Part shown: positions 14,029 through 24,211 of the stretch, one piece after another
Numbering within the stretch: the stretch's first letter is position 1
How the letters are laid out: every line of letters begins with the position of its first letter
Virus record (IMG/VR): IMGVR_UViG_2778261268_000005
Length of the DNA stretch: 32,642 nucleotides
Origin: a virus
Taxonomy: Duplodnaviria > Heunggongvirae > Uroviricota > Caudoviricetes
Direction: 5' to 3' (one strand)
Position numbers and translations under genes: made by a program
The notes under the pieces: generated by a model
What the model saw: the letters and a program-made list of their open reading frames with translations, nothing else
Database searches by the model: none
Told to the model about the DNA's origin: nothing

Positions 14029-14101
<73 letters not shown>

Positions 14102-15406: not shown

Positions 15407-15483
15407 TGGTCCGCCACCGAGGACTCGAACCTCGCACAATCAACTTAGAAGGTTGATGCTCTATCCCGATGAGCTAGTGGCGG
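15407..15483 (-). tRNA. tRNA-Arg(UCU), CCA encoded
   Basis: Acceptor CCGCCAC/GTGGCGG, anticodon loop CTTCTAA (anticodon TCT), T-loop TTCGAGT, 3' ACCA. Confidence 0.8.
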
Positions 15484-15485
15484 AA

Positions 15486-15561
15486 TGGTGGCCCTTGCTG
15501 GATTTGAACCAGCGACCTGGCGATTATGAGTCGCTCGCTCTCACCACTGAGCTAAAGGGCC
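15486..15561 (-). tRNA. tRNA with CAU anticodon, ileX/ileZ-like (Ile2 if lysidine-modified, otherwise Met), CCA encoded
   Basis: GGCCCTTTAGCTCAGTGG...ACTCATAATCGC...GGTTCAAATCCAGCAAGGGCCACCA; closely resembles E. coli ileX as recalled; 2 nt from the Arg tRNA. Confidence 0.8.
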
Positions 15562-18750: not shown

Positions 18751-18906
18751 TTACTCCTCAGGTTCGTAAGCTGTGAAGACAGCGACCTCCGTCTGGCCGG
18801 TTCGGATTCGTACCTCGCAGAGGTCTTTCCTCGTTACCAGTGCCGTCACTATGACGGTTAAACAGATGACGATCAGGGCGATTAACATCGCCTTTTGCTG
18901 CTTCAT
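18751..18906 (-). CDS. hokD: Hok/Gef-family type I toxin (51 aa); an in-frame upstream start at 18963 gives a 70 aa Mok-like form
   Basis: Translation MKQQKAMLIALIVICLTVIVTALVTRKDLCEVRIRTGQTEVAVFTAYEPEE matches HokD/RelF as recalled; structured leader and 3' terminator. Confidence 0.85.
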   Translation of the reverse strand: MKQQKAMLIALIVICLTVIVTALVTRKDLCEVRIRTGQTEVAVFTAYEPEE

Positions 18907-19116
18907 AGCCTGCTTCTCCTTGCCTTTCGGCACGTAAGAGGCTAACCTACATTTGTGAGACATAGATTGGGCCTCAGATTAATGTTAAGCGTCTTGCAGG
19001 ACGCGTAATGTTAACTGGGGCTTTTCTCTATCTGCCTTTGGTGTTCATGCCCGAGGCAGATAGCCTCAAGCACCCGCAGCAATTCTACTTAACTCTCCTT
19101 TTCCCGCAAACCGTTT

Positions 19117-19200
19117 TTATCCCCAGCGGCAAATCGAATACACCACCAGCGCCACCGCCATCGCAATTCCTACCGTGGTGAATGCCTCAGGCCGGGTCAT
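19117..19200 (-). CDS. candidate 27 aa hydrophobic peptide (MTRPEAFTTVGIAMAVALVVYSICRWG), coupled to the DUF551 gene stop
   Basis: ATG overlaps the upstream TGA (ATGA); single predicted transmembrane segment; no other support. Confidence 0.25.
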   Translation of the reverse strand: MTRPEAFTTVGIAMAVALVVYSICRWG

Positions 19201-19901
19201 TGATTCACCTCCTGCGGCGGTTCTGGTAGCGGCATCCAGTGAGTTGAGCTCTCTACTTCGACGCCGTCTTTGTCTACAAAAGCCATCTTATTCCCGCCAC
19301 GAGTGGGGCAAAAAACCTTATCCCAGGAACCGGGGAATACATTCCCGAGATCATCGAGAAGAATCACATCGCAATATTCAGCAGGAACTGCATCACTACA
19401 GCTTATCCAGCCAGCCGGAGTTCCCGGAGAGCTGGTTGACGTTTCCGAGATTTCCCGAAAATTGTTGGTTGACGAATTCTTACTTTCCCGAAAGTTTTCG
19501 GCCTGAAGCATGGCGACACGGCAGGCGTTCCAGCCATCAGCATATGTTTCAGTTACACCGTCGAGATGGCAGGTAAGCAAATCCATTTCATCAGGCACTA
19601 CCATCGCTGGCGGCGCTGCGTAAAGCGGTGTTATTTCTGCCCGAAAATCACCTACTTTATGCAGTCGCACCCACCGTTCGATTTCTGCTTTGTCAGAATT
19701 CATAAGGGTGAACGTATTACATTCATGGTTAATTTGCGTGAAGGTTGCCTTCCACGCCACCGGCTCTGCTTCCAGTGATGCCAGTGCAATTTTGAATAAC
19801 TCGCCCTCTACCTGCGCCATCCCTGAATTTGAGTGGCATTTCGCAATCGCTATTTTTAATTTGGCTTCTTCGATTAATTGCTCTTTGGTTAATTCAGTCA
19901 T
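19197..19901 (-). CDS. DUF551-domain phage protein (234 aa)
   Basis: C-terminal region with the ...THWMPLPEPP motif characteristic of DUF551 proteins, as recalled. Confidence 0.55.
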   Translation of the reverse strand: MTELTKEQLIEEAKLKIAIAKCHSNSGMAQVEGELFKIALASLEAEPVAWKATFTQINHECNTFTLMNSDKAEIERWVRLHKVGDFRAEITPLYAAPPAMVVPDEMDLLTCHLDGVTETYADGWNACRVAMLQAENFRESKNSSTNNFREISETSTSSPGTPAGWISCSDAVPAEYCDVILLDDLGNVFPGSWDKVFCPTRGGNKMAFVDKDGVEVESSTHWMPLPEPPQEVNQ

Positions 19902-20031
19902 TTTTCATTACCGCCCTTTCAGGCGGCCTCCTGATGTTCTGAGGGTGCAGAAATCCCTCCGGTTAAGGATTTAATAAAATTCACTTCTGATTTAAATTTT
20001 CAGTATTTTGTTGTCAGGTGGTTTATCGCCT

Positions 20032-20343
20032 TTATGCTTCAGTCTTATTTCTCAGCCATACACAAACAGGACCATCTTCAGTGTCATGAATGGAACCAAT
20101 GAACCAGCCTTCACCTTCCGGGCGCTCCGGTTTCCAAGAGGCAATATCGGGACCATCTGCGTCCAGATTAAAATCATCTTCATCCATAGTTCTGATGGTC
20201 CATTGAAGATTATTTTCCTCCATCCATGCGTTAAACTCTTCCGTTGAAATATGTTCTCTACCATCACAGAATTTTTCATATTCAGGATGCGTCCAGCAGC
20301 CATATTCATCACGTACTACTGGTATTTCTTTAATTTCATTCAT
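20032..20343 (-). CDS. hypothetical acidic protein (103 aa), last gene of a coupled four-gene cassette
   Basis: ATG overlaps the upstream stop; Trp/Asp/Glu-rich; no family recognised. Confidence 0.5.
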   Translation of the reverse strand: MNEIKEIPVVRDEYGCWTHPEYEKFCDGREHISTEEFNAWMEENNLQWTIRTMDEDDFNLDADGPDIASWKPERPEGEGWFIGSIHDTEDGPVCVWLRNKTEA

Positions 20344-20590
20344 TTCTGTTCTCCCACGTTTTCAGACTTTCACCACAGAACGGACAAAATGAAACCCGCA
20401 CTGGTAATTTAGAAAATTCACCGGAACGCAACATCACCAAATCATGGTCGCGAGTTAAATTCTCATTCCAGATTTTGTATATCAGCAGACCTTTTCGCGT
20501 CGTGTATTCAGCATCATGCTCAAGGGCTTTTGCCAGTACCGCACATGGTTCTATCTGATTGCTATTAACCTGACATTTTGATTCGCTCAC
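20336..20590 (-). CDS. hypothetical protein (84 aa, GTG start) with a C-terminal Cys cluster (CPFCG), possible zinc ribbon
   Basis: GTGA overlap with the upstream stop; no internal ATG before residue 53. Confidence 0.45.
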   Translation of the reverse strand: MSESKCQVNSNQIEPCAVLAKALEHDAEYTTRKGLLIYKIWNENLTRDHDLVMLRSGEFSKLPVRVSFCPFCGESLKTWENRNE

Positions 20591-21009
20591 AGCATCACCT
20601 CCTGAAATTCCCCCTGATAAAACGCCAGCACTCGCTGCATAACCTCACTCTTCCGGCACTCGCGACAGATTATGTTCTGACGCCTGTCGTAGCGGCGTAT
20701 TTCTCCGTCAGGTAATGACCTGATAAGGTCCGGATCAACCACAGCCGTTTTCTTCACCTTTGCCCTCGATAGTTTTTTGCGGGCGTTTTGCCAGTCCTTA
20801 CGAGCCTGTTCAGAGGGAAATAGCCCGTAGCCGGAGTTATATACATCGCCACTGGCAACCAGCTCTCTGGCGAGAACGCTCATTAAATATCTTGTCGCAC
20901 CTGTCTTAGCTTCAAGTTGTCGTAACGTCTCGCGCCCATTCTGGCGCACGAGTTCAACAACCTGCCCCTTAATTTTTTCCCGCTCTTCTTGTGTAAATAC
21001 TTTTGCCAT
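20587..21009 (-). CDS. hypothetical protein (140 aa from ATG 21009; track start 21024 is TTG) with an N-terminal helix-turn-helix-like segment and a CRECRK Cys pair
   Basis: GGAGG Shine-Dalgarno 5 nt before ATG 21009. Confidence 0.5.
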   Translation of the reverse strand: MAKVFTQEEREKIKGQVVELVRQNGRETLRQLEAKTGATRYLMSVLARELVASGDVYNSGYGLFPSEQARKDWQNARKKLSRAKVKKTAVVDPDLIRSLPDGEIRRYDRRQNIICRECRKSEVMQRVLAFYQGEFQEVML

Positions 21010-21024
21010 AAGCGCCTCCGGCAA

Positions 21025-21786
21025 TCACTTTTCCGATACAACACAGCGGGAAGAATCAGTAATCTGGCGAACAATATCCCGGTGCTTGTTCAACTCCCGC
21101 AGCGCGGCGCAGACACGCTCCCACTTCTGGACATGGCTTTTCGCCCGACGCAGTTTGCGGTTTGCCAGATGCAGCGATGGCAAAATCAAATCATCCGCCC
21201 GCGTTTCGGTAAACGATGGCAACGACTGCACAATGTCCGCTACAGTATCTGTTTTAATTTCTTCCTGTGTTGCAGCCTCCTGTACTGGTAACGCAACACC
21301 TGCGGGCTGAGGAAAAGCCTTACCATCAGTTTCCGCTACCGATGCTGCTTTCGGCTCTGCTGGTAAATTATCGCCCGGTATGCAGTAACGAAATTTACCG
21401 CCCTGATTTACGCGAATCAGACGACCTTTGCTGATTGCCATTGCCAGCGTTGAAGCCACTTTGCGTGATGTGGTACCAAACAATGTAGCCAGTTCATCCG
21501 CCGTTTGTGGTCCGCGTTGTTCAATCGTCGCGGTTAAATCGCACTCTGAGATTTTCGCTACTGTCGCCGTGCTGGTTTCTTCCGGCTGTTCTTCTGGCGC
21601 TGGCTGTTCCTGCTGAACGTTGTTATCAGCCACACGCCAGGTGTATGCGCTTTTATCAACGAAGCCAGCCTTTTTCAGTTCCCACAGCTCGTTCAGTACT
21701 TCTTCACGACTGATATCAAGTCGCGCAGCCAGCTCTACCGACGTGGCTTTTCCCATCGCTTTCAGTGCGTCAAAAACAGTCTCCAT
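21025..21786 (-). CDS. hypothetical protein (253 aa) with two winged-helix-like segments, a low-complexity acidic linker and a basic C-terminus
   Basis: ORF 20 nt downstream of the DnaC-like gene; two HTH-like motifs ([15 protein letters not shown] and [16 protein letters not shown]). Confidence 0.5.
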
Positions 21787-21806: not shown

Positions 21807-22553
21807 TTACTTTTCAATACCTGGCTGACCAACATTCGGGCGCCAGCTCTCCCAGTTAAAATTCACCCAGCGCCCGCCGTTCATGGTCATGCGATCCATA
21901 ATCCGCTCGCCGAGCAATGTTTTCATGGCCTCATAGTTCAGGTTTGTCAGCATTCCCACGCTACGCATCGACGCTGTCCGTCGATCAATAATCTGGTGCA
22001 GTACCACCTGCTCGTTTTTCGTCTCGCGCTGAATGCCAATTTCATCAAGAACCAGCAGATCCACTTCGCACAGTTCCCGCAAAAATTTTTCGCCTGACTG
22101 CCCGTCGTCATAGCTGGCGTGCAGGGCGCTCATAACATCAGCCACGGTAACCACAATCACTGTCTGACCGTCTTTCAGCAGGCGATTCCCGATAGCTGCC
22201 GCTAAGTGATTCTTCCCGGTACCAGGTTTTCCGCTGAACGCAAAATTTGTACACCCGGTCATCAGTTCATCGGCGATGGATTTCGCCTGGCTTAACGCGT
22301 ATCGCTGGCCGTCGTTCTGCACCTGGTAATTCGCAAACGAGCATTTACGGTGCAACGGCTGGATGCCTGAGCGATTCAGAATTTTTTCCACCCGCAACTG
22401 GCGATTCAGGCGGTTGATCTCCTCGCTACGTTTCTGGCCTTCAGCAAGTTGCCACTCGCGCCACTCCGCAACCGTTCTGAATGGGGCGGTTACATGTGGT
22501 GGGGTCAGTCTGCGGATACGCTCCAGAACGCCTCCTGTCGCAATATTTTTCAT
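21807..22553 (-). CDS. DnaC-like replicative helicase loader (IstB-type AAA+ ATPase), YdaV-like
   Basis: Walker A GKPGTGKN and Walker B LLVLDEIG motifs; position after the YdaU-like gene. Confidence 0.8.
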
Positions 22554-22559
22554 GGTCTG

Positions 22560-23348
22560 TTACCCCCTGAAGCCTGGCGGGATCGCACTGTCCGGCAACG
22601 AGACGGTGTTAACCTGTCGGAGCAACGTCTCAGGCCGAACACCTTTCGGCGCGAACAGGCCCTGGTATTCATTGGCGATGCTGTGTCGAATCACCTGCTC
22701 AGGTGTAAACCCCTGCTGACGGAATTTTTCCAGTTCCCGTATCGCCCCGTTAGCGCCCTGCTCCGTTCGAATCGGTTTTCGCAATGCCTGTCTGAACCGG
22801 ACCCACTCATGCCAGAGTGTTTCCGGCAACCAATCGGGCAGCTCAATAGCCTCCGGCTCGAATTTTTTAGACGCTCGTTTTTGGCGAGGGGGATTTAGGG
22901 GGAGATCAGTATTTAGATCTTCCTCTTCCTCTTCCTCTGGTAGCGCTTTTTGATCCGTTTGTGTAACGCCGGCAGCGTTACCTTTTCGTTTCAGTTCACG
23001 TATTTTTGTAACTCGCTCGTTTGTAACCGCCCGTTTTTTAGAGCTTTTTCCGTTATGGCGTTCAAAGTTAGGTAGAGAAAGCCCAACGTCATTTTCGACC
23101 AGCCATCCAACCTGAATTAACGCATCAGCAAAACCAGCCATAAAAGTGATGCGATCTATTGCACTTTTTGTAACGCCGCGAGCGTTACAATCTGCATTAC
23201 CGTCTATCATTTGTTGATCCGCCCATGCCCAGAAGCGAATAACCTTCCCTAATGCGGCATCTGGATCAATATTCAGAATCTCAGCAAGCCTGAATATTTC
23301 CGGCTTATCCGGCGTAATAACCTCGAGCTTTATCCAGTTTGAAGCCAT
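22560..23348 (-). CDS. putative replication initiation protein, YdaU-like (262 aa)
   Basis: Position between the immunity region and the DnaC-like gene; acidic EEEEEED linker; family call by synteny. Confidence 0.5.
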   Translation of the reverse strand: MASNWIKLEVITPDKPEIFRLAEILNIDPDAALGKVIRFWAWADQQMIDGNADCNARGVTKSAIDRITFMAGFADALIQVGWLVENDVGLSLPNFERHNGKSSKKRAVTNERVTKIRELKRKGNAAGVTQTDQKALPEEEEEEDLNTDLPLNPPRQKRASKKFEPEAIELPDWLPETLWHEWVRFRQALRKPIRTEQGANGAIRELEKFRQQGFTPEQVIRHSIANEYQGLFAPKGVRPETLLRQVNTVSLPDSAIPPGFRG

Positions 23349-23425: not shown

Positions 23426-23848
23426 TCAATGCACTACGACAGAATCACCGGGCGACCCACCACCGCTGAAATGTGCTTTCCGGTAAACGGCCTGGACTGC
23501 ATCATCATGCGCATCAATTGCCGTACTCAACGCTTCCTGCGCCGCCAGTAATGCACGGCGTTCCAGGGTATCGAAGATGCAGAGTCGGTGACGCAGCTCG
23601 CGCGGAAGAATTGCCAGAACCGCAGGGATCAGTGTCTGAATTTTTTCCCTTTGCGCTTTCGTTTCACCTTTTAACCAACGGTGATAGATGTTCTGCTGAT
23701 TATTCCAGTCCTTGCCTGGTACCAGGGGCAATTCGCCGCCCCCCTGGCGCAGATATTCTTCAGTAATTGCATTGGCTACCCATGCCTGCCCTTTTTCAGC
23801 GGCCAGGGCTAACAGCACTGATTCGATGTGCTCATGCCTGATTTTCAT
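23426..23848 (-). CDS. YdaT-like protein (140 aa), cII-like regulator / putative toxin family
   Basis: Same size and position as Rac YdaT; C-terminal HFSGGGSPGDSVVVH resembles the YdaT tail as recalled. Confidence 0.55.
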   Translation of the reverse strand: MKIRHEHIESVLLALAAEKGQAWVANAITEEYLRQGGGELPLVPGKDWNNQQNIYHRWLKGETKAQREKIQTLIPAVLAILPRELRHRLCIFDTLERRALLAAQEALSTAIDAHDDAVQAVYRKAHFSGGGSPGDSVVVH

Positions 23849-24107
23849 GAATCAACTCCTGTGCATTTTGTGTGTTAGCCTTACATCCAACAGGTAAACC
23901 ATCGGTCGGATTCGGGTAGATATCAGGCCGGAGTTCATGAGGTGTAACCTCGAAATTCGTAGCCTCTGCGATACGCAATACCTTTTCAGGGCTTAACTGA
24001 CTACGTCCAGTAGCAACGAGGCTAATCATTGATTGCGAACAACCAGCCAGCGCGGCCAAACAAGACTGTCGTACACGATTTTTTTTCAAATATTCATCTA
24101 ATGTCAT
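23832..24107 (-). CDS. Cro-like HTH protein, YdaS-like (91 aa from ATG 24107; track start 24134 is TTG)
   Basis: AAGGTGA Shine-Dalgarno 5 nt before ATG 24107; divergent from the repressor gene; HTH motif QSCLAALAGCSQSMISLVATG. Confidence 0.6.
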   Translation of the reverse strand: MTLDEYLKKNRVRQSCLAALAGCSQSMISLVATGRSQLSPEKVLRIAEATNFEVTPHELRPDIYPNPTDGLPVGCKANTQNAQELIHENQA

Positions 24108-24211
24108 AAGGGTCACCTTAGTAATGTTCGCCAAAATATTAACTATACTAATTTAAATGATCAATACTTATATCAGTTTGAGATTATGAGCTGTGTTCAT
24201 AAGATGGTGGT

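Follow-up and report, generated by a model that had tools for sequence, protein, structure and literature searches.

The window (the whole 32,642-nt stretch of viral DNA analysed, IMG/VR record IMGVR_UViG_2778261268_000005) contains a block of four consecutive minus-strand ORFs that sits between ydaU/ydaV on one side and hok/sok, NinB and Q on the other, with NinB and Q further downstream within the window. An earlier sequence-only reading had correctly placed the block between the replication genes and the nin region. The features are as follows.

23348..21807, minus strand: replication module, in the same operon and directly upstream of ORF1
23348..22560, minus strand: ydaU-like initiator (phrog_2509 replication initiation protein, E 8.5e-89)
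22553..21807, minus strand: DnaC-like YdaV (phrog_50 DnaC-like helicase loader, E 4.6e-84; IstB_IS21, E 5.4e-20)
21786..21025, minus strand: ORF1, assigned to YdaW, 253 aa, ATG start
21009..20587, minus strand: ORF2, assigned to DUF977/"LygF" and the Ren family, 140 aa, ATG start
20590..20336, minus strand: ORF3, small four-Cys protein (phrog_4030), 84 aa, GTG start
20343..20032, minus strand: ORF4, acidic Trp-rich single-domain protein (phrog_1372), 103 aa, ATG start
20031..19902, minus strand: conserved 130-nt spacer closing the block, upstream of a DUF551 gene
18901-19075: sok (Rfam)

The four ORFs of 253, 140, 84 and 103 aa are confirmed by the NCBI PGAP annotation of an identical copy in Escherichia coli VG48B2, which gives exactly the same four CDS. 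Their exact protein sequences are already in public databases, and hundreds of contigs carry intact copies. By comparison with related alleles all four are real genes under purifying selection, because dN/dS is 0.15 for ORF1, 0.11 for ORF2, 0.33 for ORF3 (n = 5 only) and 0.12 for ORF4; invariant residues are also kept across genera. The DUF551 gene next to the block carries a frameshift in strain VG48B2.

The genes had been described as joined by 4-nt or 1-nt overlaps. The 4-nt overlap stands at the ORF2/ORF3 junction (GTGA; the ORF3 GTG start has AGGAGG 8 nt upstream), but the ORF1 stop and the ORF2 ATG are separated by a 15-nt gap containing GGAGG, ORF3 and ORF4 overlap by 8 nt (ATGAATGA), and no junction has a 1-nt overlap. 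Each of the four genes has its own Shine-Dalgarno-like site, so translational coupling is possible and not required. Tight packing extends beyond these genes, throughout the operon from the cro-like gene to the DUF551 gene. Between 23848 and 20032 we found no promoter-like or terminator-like sites on the minus strand, with site counts not above those in shuffled sequence; the proposed co-expression is therefore likely, and the four genes are probably co-transcribed. An Rfam scan of the window returned only sok and no RNA element inside the four genes. GC content drops at the ORF2/ORF3 boundary, from 0.517 (ORF1) and 0.504 (ORF2) to 0.424 (ORF3) and 0.413 (ORF4).

By its profile matches ORF1 is a full-length YdaW. 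It covers the whole of PF07789 (DUF1627; E 2.3e-98, 326.8 bits, gathering cut-off 28.1, profile positions 1-155 of 155), matches phrog_630 (E 4.6e-131) and is 95% identical to K-12 YdaW (b1361) over aa 1-151. It comprises an N-terminal winged helix (~aa 1-50), an acidic linker, and a second winged helix with a C-terminal region (DUF1627, aa 88-242). The sequence-only reading had recognised both winged-helix segments and the acidic linker, as well as one such segment in ORF2, and all are borne out, with support for the helices ranging from sub-threshold to threshold. In Pfam, aa 4-46 of ORF1 give sub-threshold matches to HTH_20, TrmB, MarR and ArsR, and aa 84-130 a sub-threshold match to FeoC, whose cut-off K-12 YdaW passes. 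The two winged helices have no detectable similarity to each other. A paralogous origin of ORF1 and ORF2 was also considered and rejected: BLASTP gave no significant match, and the two share only a generic winged-helix pattern. A PDB sequence search with both proteins returned only MntR (E 0.44) and H2B (E 0.007); we took the H2B match as spurious. Among PADLOC defence models, ORF1 produced only weak matches of its HTH segment to the HTH regions of Csa3/CARF (E >= 2e-4), and ORF2, ORF3 and ORF4 produced none. Re-tested blockers of the retron-Sen2 toxin RcaT in a published screen include K-12 ydaW; the assay relied on plasmid overexpression of the K-12 protein, which is truncated (bioRxiv 10.1101/2020.06.22.160242).

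ORF2 had been judged, like its neighbours, to be no standard O/P/Ren/Nin function, and this claim does not survive the profile comparison, by which ORF2 is a member of the Ren family. Both ORF2 (E 2e-48, profile positions 1-115 of 116) and lambda Ren (E 1.6e-41, positions 11-110 of 116) match phrog_142, "Ren-like exclusion protein". ORF2 also spans PF06163 (DUF977; E 4.4e-33, 114.6 bits, gathering cut-off 22.1, profile positions 1-134 of 134), to which lambda Ren has no match at E <= 0.1. BLASTP aligns ORF2 with lambda Ren over the C-terminal 20 aa only (55% identity, E 2e-6); outside these residues the putative kinship rests on common PHROG membership. A published study describes DUF977 as a winged helix (PMC2686095). 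In ORF2 the winged helix is followed by ~35 aa of basic linker and, at the C-terminus, by the motif NIICRECRKSEVMQRVLAFY. Its position is that of Ren, at the end of the replication module, here after ydaV-ydaW. In our homologue search, all matches among the 120 listed were at least 89% identical to ORF2.

Lambda Ren counters Rex (RexAB) exclusion, and the ren-minus phenotype was reportedly described by Toothman and Herskowitz in 1980. The Rex proteins contact lambda O and Ren in two-hybrid assays (bioRxiv 10.1101/2021.04.19.439022), a RexB-Ren yeast two-hybrid interaction has been listed (PMC3224144), and Thomason et al. describe ren as "likely involved in DNA replication" (bioRxiv 10.1101/2021.04.19.439022). 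Hayes and co-workers saw no contribution of Ren to P-lethality or to replicative killing (PMC3640518), and its replication role is thus equally putative.

ORF3 belongs to phrog_4030 (E 1.7e-38) and is named "rac21" in phage Rac-SA53. The CPFCG motif previously noticed in it is real: among 17 homologues C6, C69 and C72 never vary, C16 hardly varies, and an N-terminal MSESKC is conserved. An AlphaFold2 model built with the 17 homologues was unusable (pLDDT 39.6), and no Pfam family exceeded its cut-off. Two candidate relatives were rejected, namely DUF6980 (PF22400; 14.4 bits vs a cut-off of 27, E 0.045) and Lar (PF14354), to which there was no Pfam match at E <= 0.1 and for which hhalign of ORF3 against a Lar-ORF4 fusion gave 17% probability with only CPFCG aligned.

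ORF4 ("rac22" in Rac-SA53) is acidic and Trp-rich as described (pI 4.24, 6 Trp, 26 D+E vs 9 K+R) and carries the conserved motifs RDxYGxWTHP and GWFIGSIHDTEDGPVCxWLR. Its family, phrog_1372, comprises 953 clusters at 50% identity. The predicted fold is confident and has no solved structural relative, and the domain represents a large uncharacterised phage family whose fold, as modelled, is apparently unclassified. ORF4-like domains occur alone or fused to Lar, Tad2-like or 3'-5' exoribonuclease domains; the Lar fusions are represented by three proteins (P0328, P0367 and P0404) and occur in both domain orders. Lar is an anti-restriction protein and Tad2 an anti-Thoeris protein. Across genera we found no consistent Zn-ribbon partner upstream of ORF4.

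The four genes assort largely independently. We examined IMG/VR loci anchored on each gene in turn (the 80 closest relatives of each query, which are not phylogenetically independent) by tblastn at coverage >=0.6 and E <=1e-5, at which very divergent alleles could be missed; gaps whose content was inspected held different genes, not divergent copies. Loci anchored on ORF1 (n = 64) contain ORF2 in 63 cases, ORF3 in 9 and ORF4 in 8. Those anchored on ORF3 (n = 53) contain ORF2 in 49, ORF4 in 42 and ORF1 in 16, and those anchored on ORF4 (n = 59) contain ORF3 in 27. All four genes occur together in 8/64, 6/55, 12/53 and 7/59 loci anchored on ORF1, ORF2, ORF3 and ORF4, respectively. Complete E. 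coli genomes show a similar division at >=80% coverage: 967 carry ORF1+ORF2, 252 carry ORF3+ORF4 and 34/5426 carry the whole 2 kb. By megablast, 4630/5426 (~85%) match the ORF1+ORF2 DNA at least partially. In 33 other species, no ORF1-3 homologue lies within 4 kb of the ORF4 homologue. The sequence-only reading had grouped the genes as one cassette and had set their occurrence independently of one another, beforehand, as the criterion against it; independent occurrence is what we observe (for example, the complete set in 7/59 ORF4-anchored loci). The four do not travel together: in the same ORF1-anchored loci, ORF1 is followed by ORF2 in 63/64 and by ORF3/ORF4 in ~13%. By co-occurrence and order across related genomes, the genes are not a co-inherited four-gene module. 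A looser association of ORF2, ORF3 and ORF4 within E. coli prophages is conceivable, because ORF3 has ORF2 before it in 49/53 loci and ORF4 after it in 42/53.

Neighbouring genes show the same interchangeability. The gene before YdaW is a DnaC-like YdaV in 111 loci, a 221-aa protein in 51 (which we take, from inspection by eye, to be lambda-P-like), a DnaB-like helicase in 5 and the initiator in 3, and in 27 loci where YdaW is absent the Ren-like gene directly follows the initiator. Immediately upstream of ORF4 we found ORF3 (29 loci), phrog_2358 (17), a 74-aa protein (13), a membrane protein (10) or phrog_1001 (5), and all of these partners join ORF4 at -8 to +13 nt. The same slots elsewhere hold a DNA methyltransferase, a phrog_323 HTH protein, phrog_2358, phrog_667, a 60-aa membrane protein or IS elements. 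This agrees with the earlier description of the region as variable, since DUF4406, Ead/Ea22, methyltransferase genes or IS elements fill the slots in other prophages. The 130-nt spacer is present in 232/317 related loci, directly after ORF4 in 142, after ORF2 in 17 and after other genes in 69. Its predicted structure is not significant (z = -1.3) and it holds no minus-strand terminator-like site; it recurs as a mosaic junction ahead of the DUF551 gene.

Together, our results suggest, with a probability of roughly 0.75, that the region is the promoter-distal part of the early rightward operon of a Rac-type lambdoid E. coli prophage and consists of two independently assorting pieces. The first would be YdaW (DUF1627) with the Ren-family DUF977/LygF protein, a conserved winged-helix pair that would close the replication module whichever helicase loader is used and would correspond to lambda ren both in position and in family. 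The second would be the four-Cys ORF3 and the acidic ORF4, two interchangeable accessory genes probably drawn from a pool of small genes that fill a hypervariable slot before the nin region. Co-expression would follow from read-through of the long operon, and the short overlaps would reflect general operon compaction, not a dedicated four-gene machine. We tentatively suggest, at somewhat less than even odds and by analogy, that the YdaW/Ren-like pair acts where the phage replication complex meets abortive-infection systems. There it would protect early phage replication from exclusion, as lambda Ren does against RexAB, while ORF3 and ORF4 would each act alone, as optional accessories in host interaction or counter-defence.

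Other readings of the locus differ in how much they ask of the genes jointly. The earlier proposal of a single co-inherited, translationally coupled anti-defence or host-takeover module is very improbable. The genes are contiguous, with 4- and 8-nt overlaps and without an internal promoter-like or terminator-like site, 34 complete E. coli genomes and some IMG/VR prophages have the same compact arrangement, and ORF4 is small and acidic. However, the co-occurrence data largely refute this proposal: just a minority of loci in each anchored set hold all four, the same slots hold other genes, GC content breaks at ORF2/ORF3, ORF4 occurs alone in other genera and overlaps are equally tight with alternative neighbours. 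Still harder to credit is decay, with the small ORFs as functionless relics of a cryptic prophage. Many copies in this prophage family are degraded, K-12 YdaW is truncated and the DUF551 neighbour is frameshifted in VG48B2, but purifying selection already contradicts decay (dN/dS 0.11-0.33 for all four), as do residues invariant across genera, ORFs intact in hundreds of contigs and the confidently predicted ORF4 fold. ORF3 and ORF4 might instead be a functional pair, either a Zn-ribbon partner with an acidic Lar-like restriction reliever or a toxin-antitoxin-like pair. Their 8-nt overlap, the presence of ORF4 after ORF3 in 42/53 ORF3-anchored loci, the fusions of ORF4-like domains to Lar-type Zn ribbons in both orders, and the three Cys of phrog_2358, another frequent upstream neighbour of ORF4, are all in keeping with such a pair. 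It is nonetheless quite improbable, as ORF3 is unlike Lar, 32/59 ORF4-anchored loci and all 33 other species have ORF4 without ORF3, and neither protein matches defence or toxin-antitoxin models; the fusions are themselves weak evidence, as a single mutation could presumably fuse genes with overlapping stop and start codons.

A more serious alternative, though still somewhat unlikely, is that YdaW and the Ren-like protein are plain DNA-binding accessories of replication or early transcription with no anti-exclusion or defence role, for example as binders of an origin within the initiator gene or as regulators of genes further downstream. Both proteins are winged-helix proteins, the pair always closes the replication module at the 3' end, irrespective of module type, its DNA has at least partial matches across most E. 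coli genomes (4630/5426) in the manner of core prophage genes, and Thomason et al. regard ren as a probable replication gene. Against this, lambda P-lethality and replicative killing are independent of Ren (PMC3640518), the only reported Ren phenotype and interactions concern Rex, and K-12 YdaW blocked a retron toxin. A bolder reading, doubtful although conceivable, makes the ORF4 domain a counter-defence or targeting domain of a new kind and has the YdaW/Ren-like pair generally block abortive-infection toxins (RexAB, retron RcaT); if so, the Rac-type slot would be a small anti-defence island of independent parts.

That genes overlap or adjoin within a lambdoid early operon is thus no evidence that they form a functional module, and the reading that we prefer, two independently assorting pieces, makes the region a textbook mosaic in which a conserved pair at the Ren position is followed by swappable accessory genes. 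It is an ordinary mosaic prophage region whose parts are already catalogued, with a modest counter-defence lead. We agree with the earlier view that the four genes are without demonstrated function; an anti-defence role is a possibility, with a few indirect hints from the Ren-family assignment, the RcaT block by K-12 YdaW and the Lar and Tad2-like fusions of the ORF4 domain. The leads are the screen that ties K-12 YdaW to neutralisation of a retron toxin and the suggestive fusion partners of the ORF4 domain. A further lead is the Ren homologue with its constant partner YdaW, which have at least partial DNA matches in ~85% of complete E. coli genomes; a mechanism for the Ren family would close a gap in lambda biology that dates from the description of the ren phenotype.

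The closest known counterparts illustrate both the conservation and the mosaicism. Lambda Ren and ORF2 both match phrog_142 over nearly their full length. Each has a winged helix in its N-terminal part and, in its C-terminal part, the motif N-[IL]-[IV]-x-[RK]-E-C-R-[KQ]-S-x-x-M-x-R-V-L-A-x-Y, and each is encoded where the replication module ends on its 3' side. Lambda ren directly follows P, whereas in the window YdaW separates the helicase loader from the Ren-like gene, and ORF2 is longer than lambda Ren (140 vs 96 aa), with a basic insert of ~35 aa. K-12 YdaW of the Rac prophage likewise lies directly after ydaV, but it is 186 aa long, has diverged past residue 151 and stands beside the rzpR pseudogene. 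The intact 253-aa form in the window retains the C-terminal half of DUF1627 and is followed by a Ren-like gene, both of which K-12 is without. ORF3 resembles the Lar restriction-alleviation family (PF14354) in its small size and CPFCG knuckle, which lies at the C-terminus in ORF3 and at the N-terminus in Lar, while the ORF4 domain, like DUF551, occurs alone or fused to variable partners. Although neither ORF3 nor ORF4 has homology to any lambda nin gene, they share with nin-type or "moron-like" accessory genes (e.g., DUF551) a small size, tight packing, a non-essential-looking character, a position between the replication genes and Q, and exchange among lambdoid phages at conserved junctions. 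Finally, Escherichia phage Rac-SA53 (KU052037) shares the gene families and their order after ydaV at ~90% DNA identity, in the arrangement ydaW-lygF-rac19-ead-rac21-rac22. Unlike the window, it carries rac19 (DUF4406) and ead (Ead/Ea22-like) between lygF and rac21, and the block is therefore divisible.

All four genes between 20032 and 21786 are genuine and under purifying selection. Numbered in transcription order, they are:

ORF1, 21786..21025, minus strand: 253 aa, ATG start; YdaW (DUF1627)
ORF2, 21009..20587, minus strand: 140 aa, ATG start; DUF977/LygF, Ren-like
ORF3, 20590..20336, minus strand: 84 aa, GTG start with AGGAGG 8 nt upstream; four-Cys protein
ORF4, 20343..20032, minus strand: 103 aa, ATG start; acidic Trp-rich domain (phrog_1372)

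E. coli VG48B2 has an identical copy in a prophage integrated beside ttcA, the Rac site, and NCBI PGAP calls exactly the same four CDS there. An alternative TTG start at 21024 would extend ORF2 to 145 aa; homologues and PGAP use the ATG. Median dN/dS, computed against distinct alleles from related prophages, is 0.15 for ORF1, 0.11 for ORF2, 0.33 for ORF3 (5 alleles only) and 0.12 for ORF4. The exact proteins are already in public databases (163, 202, 97 and 299 contigs, respectively) as DUF1627, DUF977, or hypothetical/prophage proteins. The sequence-only reading had joined the genes by 4-nt or 1-nt overlaps, which holds at ORF2/ORF3 (4 nt, GTGA), whereas ORF1 and ORF2 are separated by a 15-nt gap carrying its own GGAGG and ORF3 and ORF4 overlap by 8 nt (ATGAATGA).

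These genes assort independently across related prophages and do not form the co-travelling cassette that had been proposed. By megablast, 4670/5426 complete E. coli genomes match the 2-kb block in some part and only 34/5426 match over 80% or more of its length, compared with 967 for the ORF1+ORF2 half and 252 for the ORF3+ORF4 half at the same coverage. For IMG/VR, we took the best 80 loci per protein, located all four genes by tblastn, and excluded from the counts any locus with less than 3 kb of flanking sequence on the relevant sides.

Co-occurrence at related IMG/VR loci (raw counts, kinship ignored, dependent on tblastn thresholds)
Anchor ORF1, 64 loci: ORF2 in 63, ORF3 in 9, ORF4 in 8; all four in only 8
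Anchor ORF2, 55 loci: ORF1 in 32, ORF3 in 6, ORF4 in 6; all four in only 6
Anchor ORF3, 53 loci: ORF1 in 16, ORF2 in 49, ORF4 in 42; all four in only 12
Anchor ORF4, 59 loci: ORF1 in 27, ORF2 in 25, ORF3 in 27; all four in only 7

Because these samples are the window's closest relatives, which favors co-occurrence, the low figures are conservative. Gaps at related loci are filled by different genes and not by divergent alleles, including DUF4406, Ead/Ea22-like proteins, a 105-aa HTH protein (phrog_323), a 62-aa Cys-containing protein (phrog_2358), a 60-aa membrane protein, a DNA methyltransferase (phrog_954), phrog_667, phrog_1001, and IS elements. Across 76 loci, the gene upstream of ORF4 is ORF3 (29), phrog_2358 (17), a 74-aa acidic protein (13), the membrane protein (10), phrog_1001 (5), or something else (2). 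All of these neighbors lie within -8 to +13 nt of ORF4, so tight junctions are generic. Linkage of ORF3 and ORF4 is limited to a subset of E. coli prophages. Among 33 other-species genomes with an ORF4 homologue (GTDB, one genome per species; Kosakonia, Atlantibacter, Enterobacter, Pantoea, Erwinia, Serratia, Pseudomonas, Bowmanella, and others), 0/33 carry an ORF1, ORF2 or ORF3 homologue within 4 kb of it (phmmer E <= 1e-3).

Base composition changes sharply at the 20336/20590 boundary, with GC of 0.517 and 0.504 in ORF1 and ORF2 versus 0.424 and 0.413 in ORF3 and ORF4 (GC3 0.48/0.53 versus 0.40/0.32), which fits different origins of the two halves. The 130-nt spacer after ORF4 (19902-20031) is kept in 232/317 related prophage loci, directly after ORF4 in 142, after ORF2 in 17, and after other genes in 69. 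Since it lies behind differing upstream genes, it looks like a preferred, recurrent recombination junction between modules. The spacer is not significantly structured, nor does it qualify as a canonical terminator; in lambda, the equivalent place, after ren, holds tR2.

Co-transcription is likewise not peculiar to ORF1-ORF4. Read along the minus strand, the surrounding features are:

24134..23832, minus strand: cro-like repressor
23848..23426, minus strand: CII/YdaT-like activator
23348..22560, minus strand: ydaU-like replication initiator
22553..21807, minus strand: DnaC-like loader YdaV, just before ORF1-ORF4
19902-20031: 130-nt spacer, between ORF4 and the DUF551 gene
19901..19197, minus strand: DUF551 protein, 234 aa
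18751-19075, minus strand: hok/sok, just downstream of the DUF551 gene

Beyond these follow a phrog_340 protein, NinB, an HNH-like protein, and antiterminator Q, so the block was correctly placed between the replication genes and the nin region. A consensus scan of the coding strand found no promoter-like or terminator-like site from 23848 to 20032, and the earliest terminator-like site is a hairpin at 18682-18665, after hok; co-transcription therefore belongs to the whole early-right operon.

Several neighbors merit description in their own right. The type I toxin-antitoxin locus hok/sok comprises a Hok/Mok ORF (18963..18751, minus strand) and an Rfam sok match at 18901-19075 (117.7 bits, gathering score 59). 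The 234-aa protein at 19197-19901 is composite, its N-terminal part matching phrog_5117 and phrog_660 and its C-terminus (aa 164-230) being the DUF551 domain, a further case in this region of variable N-termini joined to a constant small C-terminal domain. Very different replication initiators (IMG/VR loci L104, L109 and L162, and the window's ydaU-like gene) share a C-terminal tail directly before the next gene (...EPDTEIPPGFRG, or ...DSAIPPGFRG in the window), which may reflect either a tail conserved for interaction or a junction used in recombination. Downstream of Q, the prophage carries three minus-strand tRNA genes (14029-14101, 15407-15483 and 15486-15561), called by ARAGORN as Gly(tcc), Arg(tct) and Met(cat); in VG48B2, the tRNA with the CAT anticodon is listed by RefSeq as tRNA-Ile. 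In VG48B2 (NZ_CP128584), where the four-gene block is 100% identical, the initiator and immunity region are lost, a truncated recE abuts a fragment beside ydaV, and the DUF551 gene is frameshifted, whereas the window's ydaU-like gene, repressor region and DUF551 gene are intact; the block thus persists in decayed and intact prophages alike.

What does hold together is YdaW with the Ren-like gene, a stable pair (63/64 ORF1-anchored IMG/VR loci) that closes replication modules of whatever type. YdaW is preceded by a DnaC-like loader (111 loci), a 221-aa protein that we take, by eye, to be lambda-P-like (51), a DnaB-like helicase (5), or an initiator (3), and in loci without YdaW the Ren-like gene directly follows the initiator. 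ORF1 matches Pfam DUF1627 (E 2.3e-98) and phrog_630 (E 4.6e-131) and is 95% identical over residues 1-151 to the 186-aa K-12 YdaW (b1361), which diverges thereafter. The two winged-helix/HTH-like segments and acidic linker noted from sequence are borne out, residues 4-46 giving consistent sub-threshold matches to ArsR, MarR, TrmB and HTH_20 winged helices and residues 84-130 matching FeoC-type winged helices (above that cut-off in the K-12 copy). ORF2, named LygF or "YdaW family" in phage records, matches DUF977 (E 4.4e-33), to which profile methods had assigned a winged-helix fold (PMC2686095). It also covers the whole phrog_142 profile, "Ren-like exclusion protein" (E 2e-48), which lambda Ren matches at E 1.6e-41. 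BLASTP pairs its C-terminal motif NIICRECRKSEVMQRVLAFY with NLVFKECRQSAAMKRVLAVY of lambda Ren (E 2e-6), and in a multiple alignment the two have an N-terminal winged-helix pattern in common, ORF2 having an additional basic insert of ~35 residues. These similarities identify ORF2 as a Ren-family gene by homology, a kinship that the sequence-only reading had not recognised.

For the other two proteins, fewer leads are available. No family in Pfam or NCBIfam scores above cut-off for ORF3 (phrog_4030; rac21 of phage Rac-SA53), which also shows no detectable membership in Lar or DUF6980; its structure model, at a pLDDT of 39.6, is too poor to use. With Cys6, Cys69 and Cys72 invariant and Cys16 nearly so, the protein is plausibly a zinc binder. 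The ORF4 family comprises 953 clusters at 50% identity and has no solved structural relative. Domain fusions among 54 longer relatives are the only leads to a possible function:

P0328, P0367: Lar restriction-alleviation domain, then ORF4 domain
P0404: ORF4 domain, then Lar domain (reverse order)
P0362: ORF4-like domain and Tad2-like anti-Thoeris domain (80 bits)
P0385: ORF4-like domain and Rv2179c-like 3'-5' exoribonuclease
P0313: ORF4-like domain and Ren/MarR-type winged helix

Since one mutation could fuse neighboring genes with overlapping stop and start codons, these fusions may mirror neighborhood more than function.

Family membership, place in the operon, purifying selection and independent assortment are thus demonstrated for these genes; their function is inferred. 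Ren is known for one phenotype, the exclusion of lambda ren- by Rex+ lysogens, as Toothman and Herskowitz reportedly found in 1980. In two-hybrid data, both Ren and O are connected with the Rex proteins (bioRxiv 10.1101/2021.04.19.439022), a RexB-Ren yeast two-hybrid match is listed (PMC3224144), and overexpressed K-12 ydaW is a re-tested blocker of the retron-Sen2 toxin RcaT (bioRxiv 10.1101/2020.06.22.160242; restated in a review, PMC11951105). Together, these links and the ren- phenotype lead us to favor, at roughly 35-40%, a role in which the YdaW/Ren-like pair would shield early phage replication from abortive-infection systems. The main rival, that the pair is a plain replication or transcription accessory, seems to us only somewhat less likely. 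In its favor, the authors of the Ren/O two-hybrid study suggested a replication role for ren (bioRxiv 10.1101/2021.04.19.439022); against it, P-lethality and replicative killing do not need Ren (PMC3640518).

The window contributes neither a new family nor a new arrangement; everything is catalogued already (Pfam DUF1627 and DUF977; PHROGs 630, 142, 4030 and 1372; RefSeq WP_ accessions; annotated phage Rac-SA53). We regard the region as ordinary mosaic DNA of a Rac-type prophage, with a Ren homologue missed at first reading and two uncharacterised accessory genes, ORF3 and ORF4. The sequenced phage Rac-SA53 has the order ydaV-ydaW-lygF-rac19(DUF4406)-ead-rac21-rac22, and the Ren-like gene at the end of the replication module follows the same logic as O-P-ren in lambda.
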